IMG/VR virus record: IMGVR_UViG_3300027902_000010
Location: 1 to 61,447 of that record
DNA length: 61,447 nt
Strand: one strand, 5' to 3'
Source: a virus
Taxonomy: Duplodnaviria; Caudoviricetes
Position 1 is the first letter of the stretch; each line of letters starts with the position of its first letter. This document shows positions 1,946 to 33,251 of the stretch, piece after piece. Both the position numbers and the translations under genes were made by a program. A model generated the notes under the pieces. That model was not told the origin of the DNA. It did no database searches and was given only the letters and a program-made list of their open reading frames with translations.

Positions 1946-3076
1946 CTACCTCTCTTTATTCATTTTCAATGCTACTAACCCCGCTACTGAAGCCAATACG
2001 ATAGCTATCGGCCAAATGTAGGGACTCCCCAAAATGGAGGCTTCTGCGGGTGGAACCCCAGGAGTAGCAGTCGCTGGCGGCTTCTTCCCTAGCAATCCAA
2101 CTTTTCCAGCTATGTCAACTCCCTTAGCAGCCACACCAATTCCACTCGCAATTTCCTCAGCTGTAAGCCCACCACCAGCTTCACCTGGAATAGCCCCACC
2201 CACATCTGGCATAAGATAAGCATTATCTGGATTCATGATACCGCCAGGGGCGTTAGCAGCTTCTTGTATCTGCGCTACTTGCTGTGGCGTAGCTCCAGCA
2301 TCCATCATTTGAGATGGCGTCATTCCAGTACCGGGAATTTCTGTATAAGCATTCGCAATCACCGCCTGAATATCGGCATTTGAAGCTCCAGCCGCTGCCA
2401 TCTCTCCCGCTGTCATGCCGGTACCAGGTATCGTGCCAACATTTGGCATGAGAGCAGCGTTCGCCACAAATCCACCTGGGGCGTTAGCCGCTGCTACAAT
2501 CTCAGCCACTTGTTGTGGTGTCGCTCCCGCTGCCAGCATTTGAGCTTGTGTCATTCCAGTCCCTGGAACATTAGCTCCCGGACCTACTAGAGTTGAAACA
2601 TATCCAGCGGCAGCGCCCGCTATCAATCCTTTGAGAACATCAGGTCTACCCTTCTGTAATGAGCCAGCTATCGCGCCTGCTACCGTTCCGTATGGAAATC
2701 CACCGGTAAGAGTTCCAGCGATGGCCCCAGTAGTTGACTTTTGCAATAGCTGATGACCGCCAAGATCATATCTATGGCCACCAATTGTTATTTTAGGCAT
2801 CACCTTCGCGATAGGCTTAACAAATGGTTTTAATATCAATGGCTGAATGACGTACTTCTCGAGTTGCTTAGCCGCCGTCGCCAAAGGCTTACCTATACCT
2901 TTAGAGCCAATCGTAGGTCGAATGACATGCTTTTCAACCTGAGCCAGGGTGTGGGTAATTGGTTTAACTACGGGCCTTATAACAGCTCGTTCAACCTGAC
3001 CTCCGACCTTTTTTATTGGAGCCATTAACTTACTCCAAAAGTCGCCATATCCATCATAGTAATGATACATACTCAC
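1946..3076 (-). CDS. Putative virion membrane/entry protein
   Basis: YDGYG N-terminus, amphipathic QVE..VIRP repeats, 3x PGTGMT..M.AGA repeats, C-terminal TM. Confidence 0.6.
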   Translation of the reverse strand: MSMYHYYDGYGDFWSKLMAPIKKVGGQVERAVIRPVVKPITHTLAQVEKHVIRPTIGSKGIGKPLATAAKQLEKYVIQPLILKPFVKPIAKVMPKITIGGHRYDLGGHQLLQKSTTGAIAGTLTGGFPYGTVAGAIAGSLQKGRPDVLKGLIAGAAAGYVSTLVGPGANVPGTGMTQAQMLAAGATPQQVAEIVAAANAPGGFVANAALMPNVGTIPGTGMTAGEMAAAGASNADIQAVIANAYTEIPGTGMTPSQMMDAGATPQQVAQIQEAANAPGGIMNPDNAYLMPDVGGAIPGEAGGGLTAEEIASGIGVAAKGVDIAGKVGLLGKKPPATATPGVPPAEASILGSPYIWPIAIVLASVAGLVALKMNKER

Positions 3077-3077
3077 C

Positions 3078-3284
3078 TCACTTATACGGATTCGTATCTC
3101 GAAGTGAATACAGCAAAGCTTTCACTTCCGGCACTTCTGGATGACCTGGCCCCTGGGCTTCTACGTTTTTTATTATTCCATCATAGTCAATGGCGACATT
3201 GTTCTTCTGAGCCGCTCTTACCATTGTTATGATGTTATTGATTGTGGCTACCTTGTCAGGGTCTTCTCCATATCCGATAAACAT
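3078..3284 (-). CDS. Small protein with N-terminal FIGYG motif
   Basis: 68-aa ORF with GGAGG SD. Confidence 0.65.
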   Translation of the reverse strand: MFIGYGEDPDKVATINNIITMVRAAQKNNVAIDYDGIIKNVEAQGPGHPEVPEVKALLYSLRDTNPYK

Positions 3285-14612: not shown

Positions 14613-14649
14613 GATAGACCTCCTTTCTGAAAATATTTTACTTCTGAAA

Positions 14650-14829
14650 CTACATCTTATACGGGGCTACACCTTGCTTCATGTAGTCAGCCGTTGGCGT
14701 AGATGCGGGCAAAAAGCTTTGAGCTTGACTCTCCGCCGAAGTCAATAAATTCTGACGCTGCTCAGGCGTCATGTTCGCATACTTATATCCTAGATAAAAT
14801 GCGATAGCGGCAATAATGATTCTGTCCAT
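14650..14829 (-). CDS. Small protein with N-terminal TM (59 aa)
   Basis: MDRIIIAAIAFYLGYKY..., GGAGG SD. Confidence 0.6.
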   Translation of the reverse strand: MDRIIIAAIAFYLGYKYANMTPEQRQNLLTSAESQAQSFLPASTPTADYMKQGVAPYKM

Positions 14830-14830
14830 G

Positions 14831-15004
14831 CTACTTCCTCCCCTTGCTGGATAAAATCTTCGCTACAAACTTGTCAAGAAAAACCGACAAGCGCTTAGCT
14901 TCTCGATACTCCTTCACATCATAATCCTCGCGATCTCGAGCATATATGTCGAGAAGATCTGAAGCTCTCTGAAGCTTATTGATATCTTTCAGTGACGCTC
15001 TCAT
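14831..15004 (-). CDS. Small hypothetical protein (57 aa)
   Basis: MRASLKDINKL..., GGAGGTGG SD. Confidence 0.6.
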   Translation of the reverse strand: MRASLKDINKLQRASDLLDIYARDREDYDVKEYREAKRLSVFLDKFVAKILSSKGRK

Positions 15005-15013
15005 CACCACCTC

Positions 15014-15373
15014 CTATGTATACTCGGACATGAATTCACGCTTTGAAAACTTTCCGCCTTTTGCCTTGTACTTTTTCCAAGCAATCTCCGCCGCTTTCTT
15101 CTCAAGCTTATACAGTTCGTTGAACATCTTTTTTTCAACTACCATCGCTGACTTCATATCCATACCGAACACACGATACAACCAATTCGCAATATCCTTA
15201 GCGTCGGCTGGACGAAGTCGCTTTCCATTAGAGTATCTGACTTCAGCTATATCAAAATCTGCCACTGTATCATCCATGATTCCAACTGACCTATCAGCTG
15301 GATCAATACTAATATCTTTTATTACAAAAACATACTGTTTCCACTTGATTGATATAGGCCCTTTGACAATCAT
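15014..15373 (-). CDS. Hypothetical protein
   Basis: ORF; start chosen to avoid overlap with the upstream GT. Confidence 0.55.
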   Translation of the reverse strand: MIVKGPISIKWKQYVFVIKDISIDPADRSVGIMDDTVADFDIAEVRYSNGKRLRPADAKDIANWLYRVFGMDMKSAMVVEKKMFNELYKLEKKAAEIAWKKYKAKGGKFSKREFMSEYT

Positions 15374-15380
15374 GGCTACA

Positions 15381-16799
15381 TCACATTTTCTTGAATTTGT
15401 TCTTGATGAACTCCGCCTGCTTACCACTATCTTTATAAGCCTGCACAAACTTATCATCAATGATCGTCTCTCGACCGATGTGAGGAATTATGATATCAGA
15501 GTCACACCATATCTGCCATCCCTTCAGCCGAGCCTTAATACCGAAGCTAACGTCTTCACCCACACCTTCGCGCTCTCCTTTTAGATTGTAGCCGGTAGAC
15601 GTATCCCCATATTTGAACCATGGATAGTCAAGTGACTCAAAGACCTCACGCTTGACCAGGAGAAAGTAGCCGCCAGTTGCATCTACTTCAACCATACCCA
15701 TATTCAATACGTCGTATGGGTGAAGTGACTTCTCATCATGGTCTGCAAGAAAAACACATGGAGCATGGGGCTCGCCGCGCTGCCACGCAATACCAGCACA
15801 TATATCAACATCATGCTCGAGTAACCGTAAAGCGGCATCTCCATCGAACATTTGATCATCATCAATGAAAAGTACATGAGTGAAATCGGATTTCAACAGT
15901 GCCTTCACCATCTCATTTCTGTCTTCTGGATGACCACGAGCCACATGAAAAAATGGCTTCTGAACAGGCGTACCTTCCCACAACTTGAGCAATGATATCA
16001 CGTTTTGATAATGTATGTATTCAGTTCTTGTCAACAATCCAACCATCATCTTAATCGGCTCAGACGTAGTTACTCGAAGCATATTATCAATAGCGTCTTT
16101 TCCTATTCTCTCCTCAAGAATAAGACGCTGCTTCTCCTGGTACTCATGGAAAGCATCCGCCGAACCGAGCGTATCGATAAATCCTTTTTCACCTTCATGC
16201 TCTATCTTCACATCACGAGCAATCTTGAGCGTGAAGCCGAGTTGCAAGATACGATAGCAAAGTTCCAATTCCTCCTTATCGCCGAGACCGTATACCGCTG
16301 GAAGAACTTCACCCCATTTCTCCTTCACAGCACGGATAACATTCATATCAGCCAAAAAGAAGAGACCAAGTAGATATTTTACATCACAGTTGATAAACAT
16401 CTTTAAGTTGTATGACTGTGGCCCCATTGCAAATGAAATCATCGGACCTACTGCACCAACTTCTGGATCCTTGAATCTCCTCATCATATTCTCAAGCCAC
16501 TGCTTGCAAAACACTACGTCATTGTGACACGTCAAAGCATACGGCGTATCGCACATCGCATACCCTTTTTCAACAGCCGCGATATATCCAATATTCTCAG
16601 ACGTGTACTGATACTTCAGCTCGACGCCATGATCACGACAATACCACACCACCCATGATTCAGTATTGTCATCGCTCCCATTGTCAAAAAAGAGTACTTT
16701 GTACTTCGATGGATCAGTATGTTCAATCAAACTTTCAAATGCTTTCTCTGTCAACTTCTGTTGATTCCTGGCTACCATTATTATGGTTAGCTGTTTCAT
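15381..16799 (-). CDS. Two-domain glycosyltransferase (GT2 + GT-A-like)
   Basis: DNGSDD and HNDV in domain 1; LFIDDD and GEDVSF in domain 2. Confidence 0.9.
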   Translation of the reverse strand: MKQLTIIMVARNQQKLTEKAFESLIEHTDPSKYKVLFFDNGSDDNTESWVVWYCRDHGVELKYQYTSENIGYIAAVEKGYAMCDTPYALTCHNDVVFCKQWLENMMRRFKDPEVGAVGPMISFAMGPQSYNLKMFINCDVKYLLGLFFLADMNVIRAVKEKWGEVLPAVYGLGDKEELELCYRILQLGFTLKIARDVKIEHEGEKGFIDTLGSADAFHEYQEKQRLILEERIGKDAIDNMLRVTTSEPIKMMVGLLTRTEYIHYQNVISLLKLWEGTPVQKPFFHVARGHPEDRNEMVKALLKSDFTHVLFIDDDQMFDGDAALRLLEHDVDICAGIAWQRGEPHAPCVFLADHDEKSLHPYDVLNMGMVEVDATGGYFLLVKREVFESLDYPWFKYGDTSTGYNLKGEREGVGEDVSFGIKARLKGWQIWCDSDIIIPHIGRETIIDDKFVQAYKDSGKQAEFIKNKFKKM

Positions 16800-25757: not shown

Positions 25758-25833
25758 GGCTACCTCGTATCAAGTCGATCTCTTTGCTCTTTCTCTTTTT
25801 GCTTCTTCTCTTGTTTATGCCGATTCTTCTCTT

Positions 25834-26262
25834 TTATGGTAGTGTGGTGAGGATGCCCGGGCTTTTGGGTTTCTTCCCGGTGTCGACGAAAAAATTTGTA
25901 CCGGTCTTGAGCAATGCAATCTCGTTGCTATTGGCTGATTGGGTGCCAAATCCGTTCTTATCGTAAGCGGTGCAATAGTAGAGAGCATCTGCCTTTGTTC
26001 CTAAAGTATTCGATATTGAAATTGTCGTTGTCACCACCGCCGCTGATGTCACAGTAGAAGTTGGCGATGAGATGAGATACGGACCGCCTATTGTCGTGCC
26101 ACATGTTACGGTGTAGGTCACGGGAAAATCAATGGCTGAGCCATCCGTGTTTGTCGTCGCCGTCTGCATTGAGAACAGCGATGCTGGATCAGCTTGCGCG
26201 GTAGCTACAAAGCCGATCACGAGCATAAGTACTATTCCTATTACTGCAATCATCTTTTTCAT
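25834..26262 (-). CDS. Secreted Thr-rich FN3/Ig-like protein
   Basis: Signal peptide (AQA), TNTDGS, YYCTAYD..G..S..SNE pattern. Confidence 0.6.
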   Translation of the reverse strand: MKKMIAVIGIVLMLVIGFVATAQADPASLFSMQTATTNTDGSAIDFPVTYTVTCGTTIGGPYLISSPTSTVTSAAVVTTTISISNTLGTKADALYYCTAYDKNGFGTQSANSNEIALLKTGTNFFVDTGKKPKSPGILTTLP

Positions 26263-26290
26263 TTCCTTCTCCTCCTTATGGGTTATGTTT

Positions 26291-26389
26291 CTACTCTCCT
26301 CGATACCAGAACTTGTCTACAATTTTGACGATGACATAAGCTACAGCAACTATTCCTAAGATCACAAGCGTGAATGTATCTTTATCCAT
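26291..26389 (-). CDS. 32-aa single-TM peptide
   Basis: MDKDTFTLVILGIVAVAYVIVK..., GGAGG SD. Confidence 0.55.
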   Translation of the reverse strand: MDKDTFTLVILGIVAVAYVIVKIVDKFWYRGE

Positions 26390-26397
26390 CTAACCTC

Positions 26398-26739
26398 CTA
26401 TGACTTGCAGTGTGCGCCATCTGGAGCCAACGGATCCAGAAGATTTGCTCAGAGCCAGATTGCCATCTTGCCACGCCAGGTATCAGGCAAGTGAAATTTA
26501 TATTTCTCAAGACGACCGGTTGTCAGCCAACGATCAGGCAGCTCGAGAAAGATGAGTGTGCATAATGTATAATTGAGCAAAGCATCAAGCACGACAAACA
26601 AGGCGAGCCATGGATAGCCAAATATCTTTGGCCATGTTCCTAAGGTCCCCGCCATCTTCGCTCGCAAGAGAGCCATCATGAGACCATAGCCACCCCAGAC
26701 ACACCAGATGAACAGTAAAGAATACAATAAATATTTCAT
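26398..26739 (-). CDS. Membrane protein with in-frame UGA (26449-26451); selenoprotein candidate or nonsense allele
   Basis: ...AIWL-UGA-ANLLDPLAPDGAHCKS-UAG; the UAG is fused to the next SD; a hairpin follows the UGA. Confidence 0.6.
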
Positions 26740-27110
26740 GTCGGCTCCTTCTGTACAGGTTTTGATCTCTGTCGCTTGATCGCAGGCATTACAAGGAATA
26801 CAAATATTCCTATTCCCACAGCCGCGTAAATGACATATTTCCACATTCCAGAAGTACTGCTCGATACTGGAATAGATGGCGCTGGCAGCATTGGCGTGGT
26901 GGCCTGCTTTTCCATAGCCGCTGCAAACTCATAATCTTCGAGAGGTATATCGAGCTGCTGACCAACCTGAATGAGATTAGGGTCTGCTATTCTATTCTGA
27001 TTCGCAATCGTTTGCACACTGACACCGTACTTAGCAGCTATTGCGCCCAGCGTATCACCAGGCTGGACCGTATATGATTCCCAATTCAACTCTCCGTATG
27101 ATGCGAACAT
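26736..27110 (-). CDS. LysM protein with C-terminal TM
   Basis: YTVQPGDTLGAIA...NLIQVGQQLDIP followed by TM. Confidence 0.92.
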   Translation of the reverse strand: MFASYGELNWESYTVQPGDTLGAIAAKYGVSVQTIANQNRIADPNLIQVGQQLDIPLEDYEFAAAMEKQATTPMLPAPSIPVSSSTSGMWKYVIYAAVGIGIFVFLVMPAIKRQRSKPVQKEPT

Positions 27111-27114
27111 GGTA

Positions 27115-27354
27115 TTACCTCATAACTGGTGGCCACGTTTCAAACTCTACTTCTTCAACATTCTTTCCAAGCCATTTGTTGTCAGCATGCAGACCTTGTG
27201 TCACATTATACAAAACAAAATCTCCAAGATTTGAACGAGCTGCGATGGTATATGAATTACCCATCCACAAAGACTTCGTCTTCACTTTCTTGATCTTACG
27301 ACCGGTGTATTTCTCTATAATCCACTTAGCCGCAGTGTTTCCAGTGAATGGCAT
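27115..27354 (-). CDS. Small hypothetical protein
   Basis: 79-aa ORF with GGAGG SD. Confidence 0.6.
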   Translation of the reverse strand: MPFTGNTAAKWIIEKYTGRKIKKVKTKSLWMGNSYTIAARSNLGDFVLYNVTQGLHADNKWLGKNVEEVEFETWPPVMR

Positions 27355-27362
27355 GATGCCTC

Positions 27363-27641
27363 CTACTTAGGTAATATCTTCAACAACAGCTTGGTGATTT
27401 CAATCAAGTCCTTCTTGTAGATCACATTCTGCAAATGGACATTGTAGTAGCGTTCACGCTGGTTAACATAGATCGATCCCTTATCACCAATTAGATGTCG
27501 CTTTTCAAAAGGGGTGTACCGCTTCTTACCGATATCAATACGAGAGTAATGTGGAACATCGACCAACTCAAAGTTCTTTGATTCGGCCAATATGTTCTCA
27601 TCGTATTCATATCCACGTCGTCTTCTCATTCTGGCCATCAT
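27363..27641 (-). CDS. Small basic hypothetical protein
   Basis: MMARMRRRRG..., ATGA overlap. Confidence 0.6.
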   Translation of the reverse strand: MMARMRRRRGYEYDENILAESKNFELVDVPHYSRIDIGKKRYTPFEKRHLIGDKGSIYVNQRERYYNVHLQNVIYKKDLIEITKLLLKILPK

Positions 27642-27847
27642 CGCCTCCTGCTAACACGACGTCTTCGTGGATTCAACTTGTAATATTTTTTGGCGCCGTC
27701 GATTTGCATAACATCTACAAAGCCAAACCCCTCTTCTTGGAGTAGTTCCTCAATCTTCTCTTCCAATTCTTGAATAGCATCTGTTCCTAAGTTCTCTGGC
27801 TTGTCTGTGTCTGGATTCATGAGCGTTACAAGAAATTGCGCTTTCAT
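27638..27847 (-). CDS. Small protein ending KLNPRRRRVSRRR
   Basis: 69-aa ORF, NP followed by Arg tail. Confidence 0.6.
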   Translation of the reverse strand: MKAQFLVTLMNPDTDKPENLGTDAIQELEEKIEELLQEEGFGFVDVMQIDGAKKYYKLNPRRRRVSRRR

Positions 27848-28383
27848 CTGTCCACCTCGTAATCATAGAGTGTTGTATAAGTCGGATTTTCCCATCCGAC
27901 GTAAGCACCTTCTTTGATCTCATCAACAGGCAGCCACTGACCATAGATATATACAAGACCATAGACGTGACCGAGCTGCTTATTTGGCTTATACGACGCC
28001 GCTCGCAACTTTACTCGAAAGCCTATGCTCTTGAGGAGCGACAATGACAGAATCGTCATATCATCGCAATCACCTTGCCACAGCACGCCTTTGCGCCAAT
28101 ACTCGAGAGCAACAAGTGGTGACTGGAGCATCTCTACATTGCTCGGGTCCTTTATATATCGAGAGTGATTCTGAACGAAGTGATAGATGGCATCAGCCTC
28201 ACCCCATTCATCCTTTTGCGGTATTCCTTCAACAATCTTCGCGGCCCAGTCTCGAACGAGCGGATTCTTTCCAGATTGGCGTATCGCCGAGGCCATGAGT
28301 TCGAGCGTATTATTGTTGACCGCATCATCTCCAAATCCAAGATTCACATATTTGACAGATTGATCACTCAGTCCTCGAAACAT
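27844..28383 (-). CDS. Transglutaminase-like (papain-fold) cysteine enzyme
   Basis: GDCDD (Cys), GHVY (His) and WLPVD (Asp) triad. Confidence 0.85.
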   Translation of the reverse strand: MFRGLSDQSVKYVNLGFGDDAVNNNTLELMASAIRQSGKNPLVRDWAAKIVEGIPQKDEWGEADAIYHFVQNHSRYIKDPSNVEMLQSPLVALEYWRKGVLWQGDCDDMTILSLSLLKSIGFRVKLRAASYKPNKQLGHVYGLVYIYGQWLPVDEIKEGAYVGWENPTYTTLYDYEVDR

Positions 28384-32501: not shown

Positions 32502-33251
32502 ATGCTAGGAACAAAGATCGGAAAGCATCGTGGTCACATGGGTGATAAGCATAACAGAGCGCAGAAGGTCTACAATGCTTGGTCTGAGCTGAAGGCAAAG
32601 ATGGAAGGTATGATAATACGGGGACGTGGTGAGACCGAGCAGGCGCGATGCGCCTACTGTATGCTGTTGCTCATGGAGACAGGGATCCGCTCTGGGAACA
32701 GAGATAGCGCAGGTGGCTATGTCTGCGACCAGAAGCATCACGAGAAATATGGTAAAGAGATCCAGACGTTTGGGCTCACAACGCTGCGACCCGAGCATGT
32801 CGATCAATCCCGTGGCCAAGTCCGTATCTCGTTCACAGGCAAGAAACTAGTGGACCAGACATTGGTTACAAAGCATCCAATACTCGTCAAGTACTTCCAT
32901 GCTGTTCTCGAATCACATGATGATCCCACCGCATTCGGTGTCCATGATAAGCAGCTGCGCCGATTTACTCGCAAACATATTGGTCCAGGCTTCAAGCCAA
33001 AAGATATCCGCACCGCGTTGGTGAATAGGCTATTCATCAATATTGTCGAGAATGATAATATACTCAATGCCAAGCCAAGTACCAAGAAAGAAGCCAATGC
33101 GGTACTCAAGAAATTGATTGAAACCGTGGCTGAGCGCATTGGCCATACAAAGGGCGTATGCAAGGGGTCATATCTATCACCCACACTACTCGCCGTCGTA
33201 AAGGACCGCTTGCATGGTAATATTGTCCACAAGACCCGCAAGCGCAAATAG
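32502..33251 (+). CDS. DNA topoisomerase IB, catalytic domain only
   Basis: IRSGN, GLTTL..H, FTGKK, KDIRT and GHT..VC..SY give the R-K-R-H-Y pentad of poxvirus/bacterial TopIB. Confidence 0.88.
   Translation: MLGTKIGKHRGHMGDKHNRAQKVYNAWSELKAKMEGMIIRGRGETEQARCAYCMLLLMETGIRSGNRDSAGGYVCDQKHHEKYGKEIQTFGLTTLRPEHVDQSRGQVRISFTGKKLVDQTLVTKHPILVKYFHAVLESHDDPTAFGVHDKQLRRFTRKHIGPGFKPKDIRTALVNRLFINIVENDNILNAKPSTKKEANAVLKKLIETVAERIGHTKGVCKGSYLSPTLLAVVKDRLHGNIVHKTRKRK

Follow-up and report, generated by a model that had tools for sequence, protein, structure and literature searches.

An in-frame TGA at a conserved cysteine position of a small phage membrane-protein gene: probably a recent nonsense change or base-call error rather than a selenocysteine codon

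An interrupted gene and its phage protein family

The stretch of DNA analysed here (hereinafter the window) is the whole IMG/VR virus record IMGVR_UViG_3300027902_000010 (61,447 bp), assigned to the Caudoviricetes within the Duplodnaviria. On its minus strand, the reading frame of a small putative membrane protein extends from an ATG at 26739–26737 to a TAG at 26400–26398, with a TGA at 26451–26449 as its sole interruption. A first-pass annotation made from the sequence alone had proposed that this UGA is decoded as selenocysteine (Sec), making the gene a candidate viral selenoprotein. In our analysis, the TGA is probably a recent TGY-to-TGA nonsense change or a base-call error rather than the mark of the first phage selenoprotein.

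The frame described by the first-pass annotation is present on the minus strand at 26739–26398: 96 sense codons ending in WRGKMAIWL precede the TGA, and 16 in-frame sense codons, ANLLDPLAPDGAHCKS, lie between it and the TAG. The TAG itself provides the first three letters of a TAGGAGG sequence (26400–26394), and the next ATG (26389) follows 8 nt further on. TAGGAGG is listed 10 times on the minus strand, where a stop codon built into a ribosome-binding site (RBS) is a recurrent layout, in agreement with the earlier remark that this UAG is fused to the GGAGG of the next gene as other gene ends are. Termination at the TGA would leave a gap of 59 nt to the next gene, compared with a median same-strand gap of 9 nt, although gaps of at least 45 nt make up 12 of 56. 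A gene caller recorded the window's own gene, as read up to the TGA, in a 76-aa version (P0004).

Family searches were performed with the read-through translation, in which the query was given a cysteine at the TGA position (column 97). The family comprises 604 representatives at E ≤ 0.001 and 142 at E ≤ 1e-10, in a set of about 15 billion proteins represented at 50% identity. Its two nearest homologues (P0002 and P0003; 75% and 70% identity, E = 9e-48 and 4e-47), both from short assembled Logan contigs, have Cys at column 97. For residue statistics, we aligned the best 150 representatives with these two nearest homologues, giving 152 natural homologues with the query as row 153 and only P0004, the window's own short call, left out; selection of the best-scoring 150 with a Cys97 query introduces a slight bias towards Cys forms. 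Within this alignment, Cys occupies column 97 in 128 of the 152 natural homologues (the first-pass annotation had proposed an alignment check of this column), and column 111 likewise in 128. The two cysteines are lost together, with one exception each way, and are replaced by small or hydrophobic pairs (A/V, G/I, G/L and A/I). By contrast, the adjacent His110 is invariant (152/152).

Other positions are nearly as constant: with the query included (153 rows), L101 is found in 152 sequences and D52 and P68 in 151 each. The core residues D52, P68, R76, R89, L101, G108 and H110 are all present in the read-through frame; three of them (L101, G108 and H110) lie past the TGA and are absent from the terminated product. 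The family consensus ends in W.C..LLDPFDP.G.HC, with the UGA on the first Cys, which bears out the W.C..LLD..DP.G.HC ending that the earlier annotation had named and used to place a Cys at this codon.

A tree-based test of the covariation between Cys97 and Cys111 yielded one independent pair on supported branches and thus had no power. On the best tree, which lacks support, each cysteine changes 17 times; the evidence for covariation is therefore the raw counts. Since the two cysteines are swapped for hydrophobic pairs while the neighbouring His never changes, the pair behaves like a packing contact or a staple would and unlike a catalytic redox centre.

Neither Pfam nor PHROG has a family that matches the read-through protein (113 aa). 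A Pfam search with 124 members found nothing in common, three different families each being hit by one member (best E = 0.0008), and a PHROG search with 50 members returned no match. An AlphaFold2 model built from a 124-sequence alignment has a mean predicted local distance difference test score (pLDDT) of 97.3 and places helices at residues 2–29, 35–57, 59–64, 73–83 and 88–104. Foldseek comparison of this model with the PDB gave no counterpart (best E = 6), structural matches in BFVD are confined to uncharacterised Caudovirales proteins (up to TM 0.86), and a search of the ESM Atlas with the homologue P0005 returned only "hypothetical protein" clusters, each 61–94% viral in composition. The family is almost entirely viral.

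Among cultured or published phages, family members were found in three records only, namely two Curvibacter phages and one uncultured phage. The genes of Curvibacter phage TJ1 (QDB70154.1) and Curvibacter phage P26059A (P26059A_0030) encode proteins of the same length class, with the same layout of two helices plus a C-terminal domain and the same C-terminal motif, at 34–45% identity to homologue P0003 (tblastn). Both have Cys at column 97, lie directly after tail-fibre genes and are annotated as "hypothetical protein", whereas the window's copy has the TGA and is flanked by a LysM protein on one side and by small hydrophobic open reading frames (ORFs) on the other. Judged from these comparisons, the family is a large, widespread, phage-specific and unnamed group of small membrane proteins with two predicted transmembrane helices and a conserved C-terminal domain. 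Being confidently foldable without a Pfam, PHROG or PDB counterpart, it is worth naming, a by-product of modest value.

Rarity of the TGA and properties of the adjacent hairpin

To look for the TGA in other genomes, we scanned DNA for the family signature W-[LIVFM]-codon97-x-x-L-L-D-x5-G-x-H-C with codon 97 fixed. With the strict signature, IMG/VR gave 0 stretches with TGA versus 99 with TGY. When the TGA pattern was relaxed, 241 million metagenome records yielded 12 stretches and the genomes of 185,579 prokaryote species (one genome each) yielded 7, set against roughly 10 chance matches expected by our own rough estimate. When these 19 stretches were translated and scored with the family hidden Markov model, 18 showed no family similarity outside the residues forced by the pattern. 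The strict and relaxed patterns recognise 45 and 71, respectively, of the 152 known members, so about half of the family is testable by such scans, which may moreover omit the record of the window itself. A search for shortened homologues in a 5.8-billion-cluster database, in which the best 120 of 250 matches were full length, is uninformative on hidden UGA forms. Across the collections scanned, the TGA at column 97 thus appears private to this genome, a situation that the first-pass annotation had itself named as telling against its proposal.

One relaxed match, on a phage-like metagenome contig (L110), was weighed as a possible second UGA form but not accepted: the similarity covers only about 20 C-terminal residues at 2285–2335 (minus strand), most of them forced by the pattern, the frame has 46 codons, and none of the six frames contains the membrane part. 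The frame itself (2258–2398, minus strand) ends in a family-like manner with TGA at the Cys97 position; an ORF at 2298–3203 lies upstream of it and overlapping ORFs at 1215–2282 and 1552–2376 lie downstream. The frame could be left over from a family gene, or the resemblance could be due to chance.

Metagenome screens for TGA/Cys pairs, in the available text of PMC1088965 and PMC1976440, require two or more distinct sequences with a conserved TGA before a new selenoprotein family is accepted; single TGA sequences keep the status of "candidates", since they may reflect sequencing errors. The family described here has yielded one TGA-bearing sequence. The single-sequence candidates from the Sargasso Sea (PMC1088965) and the Olavius symbionts (PMC1976440), as far as the available text describes them, resemble the present case in having a TGA aligned with the Cys of two or more homologues, flanks that are conserved and a SECIS-like (selenocysteine insertion sequence-like) hairpin directly after the TGA. 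The present case differs from them in its phage carrier and in a Cys that lies outside any recognisable redox motif.

The hairpin reported by the first-pass annotation, with a UCUGGA/UCCAGA stem and a G-first loop 17 nt downstream of the UGA, is found at 26440–26420. It folds at −8.5 kcal/mol alone and at −11.8 kcal/mol when a lower stem is included over the first 36 nt. The legend to Fig. 2 of PMC13188914 defines a bacterial SECIS (bSECIS) by an apical loop of 3–9 nt with a G in its first two positions (usually then G or U), a UGA-to-loop distance of 16–37 nt and a minimum free energy of at most −7.5 kcal/mol. We coded these constraints ourselves from that legend, so our filter is neither bSECISearch nor deep-Sep, and added a stricter version in which the loop must begin with G followed by G or U. 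As in the bacterial Sec-UGA genes of PMC13188914 (in its available text), the hairpin lies in coding sequence immediately 3' of the UGA. It shares with the bSECIS model of the same source a 3-nt apical loop beginning with G-U, a spacing within the allowed range and an energy below the threshold, but differs in having just 2 bp under the loop before a mismatch. Covariation support is missing because no other UGA forms were found in the collections scanned.

The model is permissive. The published filter is passed by 207 (7%) and the stricter one by 104 of the 2940 TGA triplets that the window contains. At the Cys codons of homologues at the same position, 5 of 99 pass the published and 2 of 99 the stricter filter; a hairpin conserved in the family, to which the first-pass annotation had attached weight, is therefore not seen. 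When the 16 codons after the TGA were synonymously recoded with the phage's codon usage, 1089 of 3000 recodings (36%) passed the published filter and 200 of 2000 (10%) the stricter loop motif, showing that coding for L-L-D-P...A-P-D-G tends to form such a stem by itself. The 61-nt stretch is no more stable than its shuffled versions (z = 0.04; 97 of 200 shuffles fold as well), and an Rfam search of 26340–26520 returned no family even at E ≤ 10. The hairpin thus exceeds chance only moderately. It appears to be largely a by-product of the encoded peptide, a 1-in-3 to 1-in-20 event noticed after the fact, and adds a likelihood ratio for Sec of perhaps 3 to 20.

Interpretations of the in-frame TGA

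Genome-wide reading of TGA as an amino acid by phage or host (translation table 4 or 25) has next to no chance of being correct and was rejected on stop usage and coding density. TGA ends 32 of 101 ORFs, including four neighbours within 2 kb of the family gene; when it is treated as a sense codon, the ORF count falls and coding density is 0.875 versus 0.891, and no stop reassignment improves the density. Extensions past the other 29 TGA-terminated genes are short or meaningless, and only that of the family gene is meaningful. Stop-codon recoding is known in some phages, and these resemble the window in having an in-frame TGA inside a phage gene, but they carry many such codons, whereas the window has one and otherwise uses TGA as a regular stop. 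There is no suppressor tRNA on the record, on which (65% complete according to CheckV) no tRNA, tRNA-Sec, selA, selB or selD was found at all, although a phage need not carry them. Decoding confined to this one gene by selenocysteine is a stronger contender and has most of the observations that speak against a simple premature stop on its side. Host SelB with Sec-tRNA would bind the hairpin and insert Sec at codon 97 of a 113-residue protein, in which Sec97 and Cys111, the neighbour of the invariant His110, would form a selenenylsulfide or share a ligand. The UGA coincides exactly with a conserved, covarying Cys, the classic Sec/Cys signature; the conserved residues past it are all intact, and the frame closes at the family's normal position with the native stop. 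The hairpin formally fits every published bSECIS constraint, including the G-U at the start of a small loop and the 17-nt spacing, and is more stable than 95% of the synonymous recodings (96 of 2000 are at least as stable). Not one of 29 genuine TGA stops in the window is followed by a qualifying hairpin, and the family gene is the only one among 30 TGA-terminated genes examined to have it. Truncation would moreover remove the invariant His, and survival of such an allele in an assembled consensus needs a dispensable gene or a very young mutation. Close kin (>75% identity) are not at hand, and the privacy of the TGA therefore rests on distant relatives. Sec use is commoner in anaerobes, and weak context of this kind is offered by three radical-SAM genes and by the nearest named transketolase homologues, which come from uncultured anaerobe-type lineages (Omnitrophota).

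Most of this evidence does not discriminate. The aligned Cys, the intact extension, the native stop and the partner Cys are equally expected from a single recent transversion of a Cys codon to TGA. The hairpin is the exception among the points that favour Sec, and the peptide predisposes to it in the recodings under either filter. Sec normally sits in catalytic redox centres, whereas the Cys pair here looks structural and unlike a redox motif. No second TGA-bearing sequence was found in any collection scanned, the nearest homologues have Cys, and the Sec machinery was not found on the phage record. Single-sequence TGA/Cys cases are regarded in the available text of PMC1088965 and PMC1976440 as unresolved and as possible sequencing errors, and our literature search, which covered its sources in part, found no report of a phage selenoprotein. 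Of the earlier proposal of Sec insertion by host SelB, then, the Cys column, the covarying terminal Cys and the agreement with bSECIS constraints hold, whereas the UGA is private and the hairpin is scarce among the homologues, and we regard Sec insertion as unlikely. We likewise doubt that the gene exploits a leaky stop, at which a real UGA would mostly terminate while near-cognate decoding by ordinary tRNAs gives a small full-length fraction without selenium, leaving the phage with a short and a long form or with partial function. UGA is generally the leakiest stop codon, the intact extension up to the native stop suits this explanation as well, and the hairpin just past the stop could slow termination; yet the arrangement is not conserved in the family in the signature scan, the following base is G (TGAG), to our knowledge not a particularly leaky context, and nothing here tells this case from a plain nonsense mutation.

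We therefore prefer the alternative that the first-pass annotation had itself named, a nonsense mutation or base-call error, and judge it probable because no second UGA form was found, the Cys pair has a non-catalytic look and the hairpin is weak evidence. One transversion would turn the conserved Cys97 codon (TGC or TGT) into TGA, either as a recent nonsense mutation in the sampled phage population or, less likely, as a base-call or assembly error. If the change is real, translation would stop at codon 97 and release a 96-residue product without His110, Cys111 and the LLDP..P.G motif. Such a product would probably be inactive, since the invariant His110 and the most conserved motif are missing, and its inactivity would imply that the gene is dispensable under the sampled conditions or that the allele is young. 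The intact 16 codons, the native TAG within the next RBS and the partner Cys would then be those of an ancestral gene interrupted too recently to have decayed.

A premature stop in an accessory phage gene is an ordinary event. Sec insertion, if true, would give the first reported bacteriophage selenoprotein, mean that phages are able to exploit the host Sec machinery and link this phage to a host that uses Sec. The literature, as far as it was available, yielded no paper on phage selenoproteins, and supplementary candidate lists of selenoproteome papers could contain phage-borne cases; the available text of a 2026 review of the prokaryotic selenoproteome has no occurrence of "phage" or "virus". 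The case mainly illustrates that a Cys-to-TGA change, when joined by a hairpin that the encoded peptide favours, can pass for a selenoprotein gene, and that no SECIS should be claimed until synonymous recodings have served as controls.

Surroundings of the gene in the window

Table 1 Features of the interrupted gene and its immediate neighbours in the window.
Feature	Position	Strand	Description or basis
Full ancestral frame	26398..26739	-	113 sense codons with the TGA read through, followed by TAG; aligns end to end with P0002, P0003 and the 152 family members
Codons before the TGA (96)	26452..26739	-	Contain two predicted transmembrane helices and the beginning of the C-terminal domain; product if the UGA terminates
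In-frame TGA (family column 97)	26449..26451	-	Column is Cys in 128/152 natural homologues
In-frame codons after the TGA (16), ANLLDPLAPDGAHCKS	26401..26448	-	Hold the most conserved residues L101, D102, P103, P106, G108, invariant H110 and C111
Hairpin	26420..26440	-	6 bp, 1x1 mismatch, 2 bp, loop GUU; loop starts 17 nt after the UGA
TGC codon of Cys111, covarying partner of column 97	26407..26409	-	Both Cys in 127/152 natural homologues; states agree in 150/152
TAGGAGG, ancestral stop fused to the RBS of the next gene (ATG 26389)	26394..26400	-	Sequence
Next gene downstream, 32-aa hydrophobic peptide	26291..26389	-	ORF only
Upstream gene, LysM domain and C-terminal hydrophobic segment	26736..27110	-	PF01476, E = 1.6e-18; its stop overlaps the start of the family gene

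The record has inverted terminal repeats and a G+C content of 43.8%. Up to about 30.8 kb its large ORFs are on the minus strand, and past that point on the plus strand. Genes were recognised for a family-A DNA polymerase, helicases, a methyltransferase, a topoisomerase-IB-like protein, a ligase, a UDG-domain protein, a GT2 glycosyltransferase and a split transketolase, along with three radical-SAM proteins. No Rfam family reaches its gathering score in the window. Relatives are distant: blastn of 25800–27400 against cultured phages gave no match, and the DNA polymerase has less than 30% identity to the best cultured-phage records. Searches of IMG/VR for related loci with the family alignment and with a 599-aa neighbour returned none, and 19 neighbouring proteins had no tblastn match in the 99 family loci. 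Loci retrieved from IMG/VR with a transketolase alignment (best 49% identity) have only radical-SAM and transketolase genes in common with the window. A closer transketolase (P0275; 62% identity) is encoded on a contig of about 62 kb. The named transketolase homologues belong to Omnitrophota, Wildermuthbacteria and Auribacterota at about 50% identity, a weak hint at the host on which nothing was rested.

The radical-SAM and transketolase genes form a plus-strand cassette at 37645–44194, comprising radical-SAM genes at 37645–38547, 40012–41037 and 41427–42500 (the latter two with SPASM domains), a small ORF at 39460–39843 and the split transketolase at 42967–43752 and 43718–44194. At least 15 IMG/VR contigs fetched through the transketolase (loci L121–L147) have 5–7 window proteins, nearly all belonging to the cassette, at roughly 25–50% identity. 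The cassette has the look of a mobile module of phages that serves metabolism or modification.

On the minus strand, a row of genes at 26291–28383 contains a transglutaminase-core protein (27844–28383), the LysM protein, the family gene, which lies 1.1 kb downstream of the transglutaminase-core protein, and the 32-aa ORF. Of the ORFs scanned, none was recognised as belonging to an endolysin or holin family. The row may constitute an envelope or lysis module, and the position of the family gene hints at a role related to the envelope or to lysis.

The TAGGAGG sequences of the minus strand are located at 27365, 26400, 24492, 23646, 22842, 19087, 17014, 15016, 3295 and 545, and at most of them a stop codon is fused to the RBS of the next gene, 5–6 nt before its ATG. 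This recurrence is consistent with genes that are tightly coupled in translation and with a host that makes strong use of Shine-Dalgarno sequences.

A match to the eukaryotic-type DNA topoisomerase I catalytic core (PF01028, E = 5e-11) was obtained for a 249-aa protein encoded at 32502–33251 (plus strand). Together with the inverted terminal repeats and the strand switch at about 31 kb, this protein raises the possibility that the replication mode and the resolution of the ends may be unusual. The family-2 glycosyltransferase (472 aa; 15381–16799, minus strand) adjoins a 768-nt stretch (14613–15380) for which the gene list has no minus-strand ORF.

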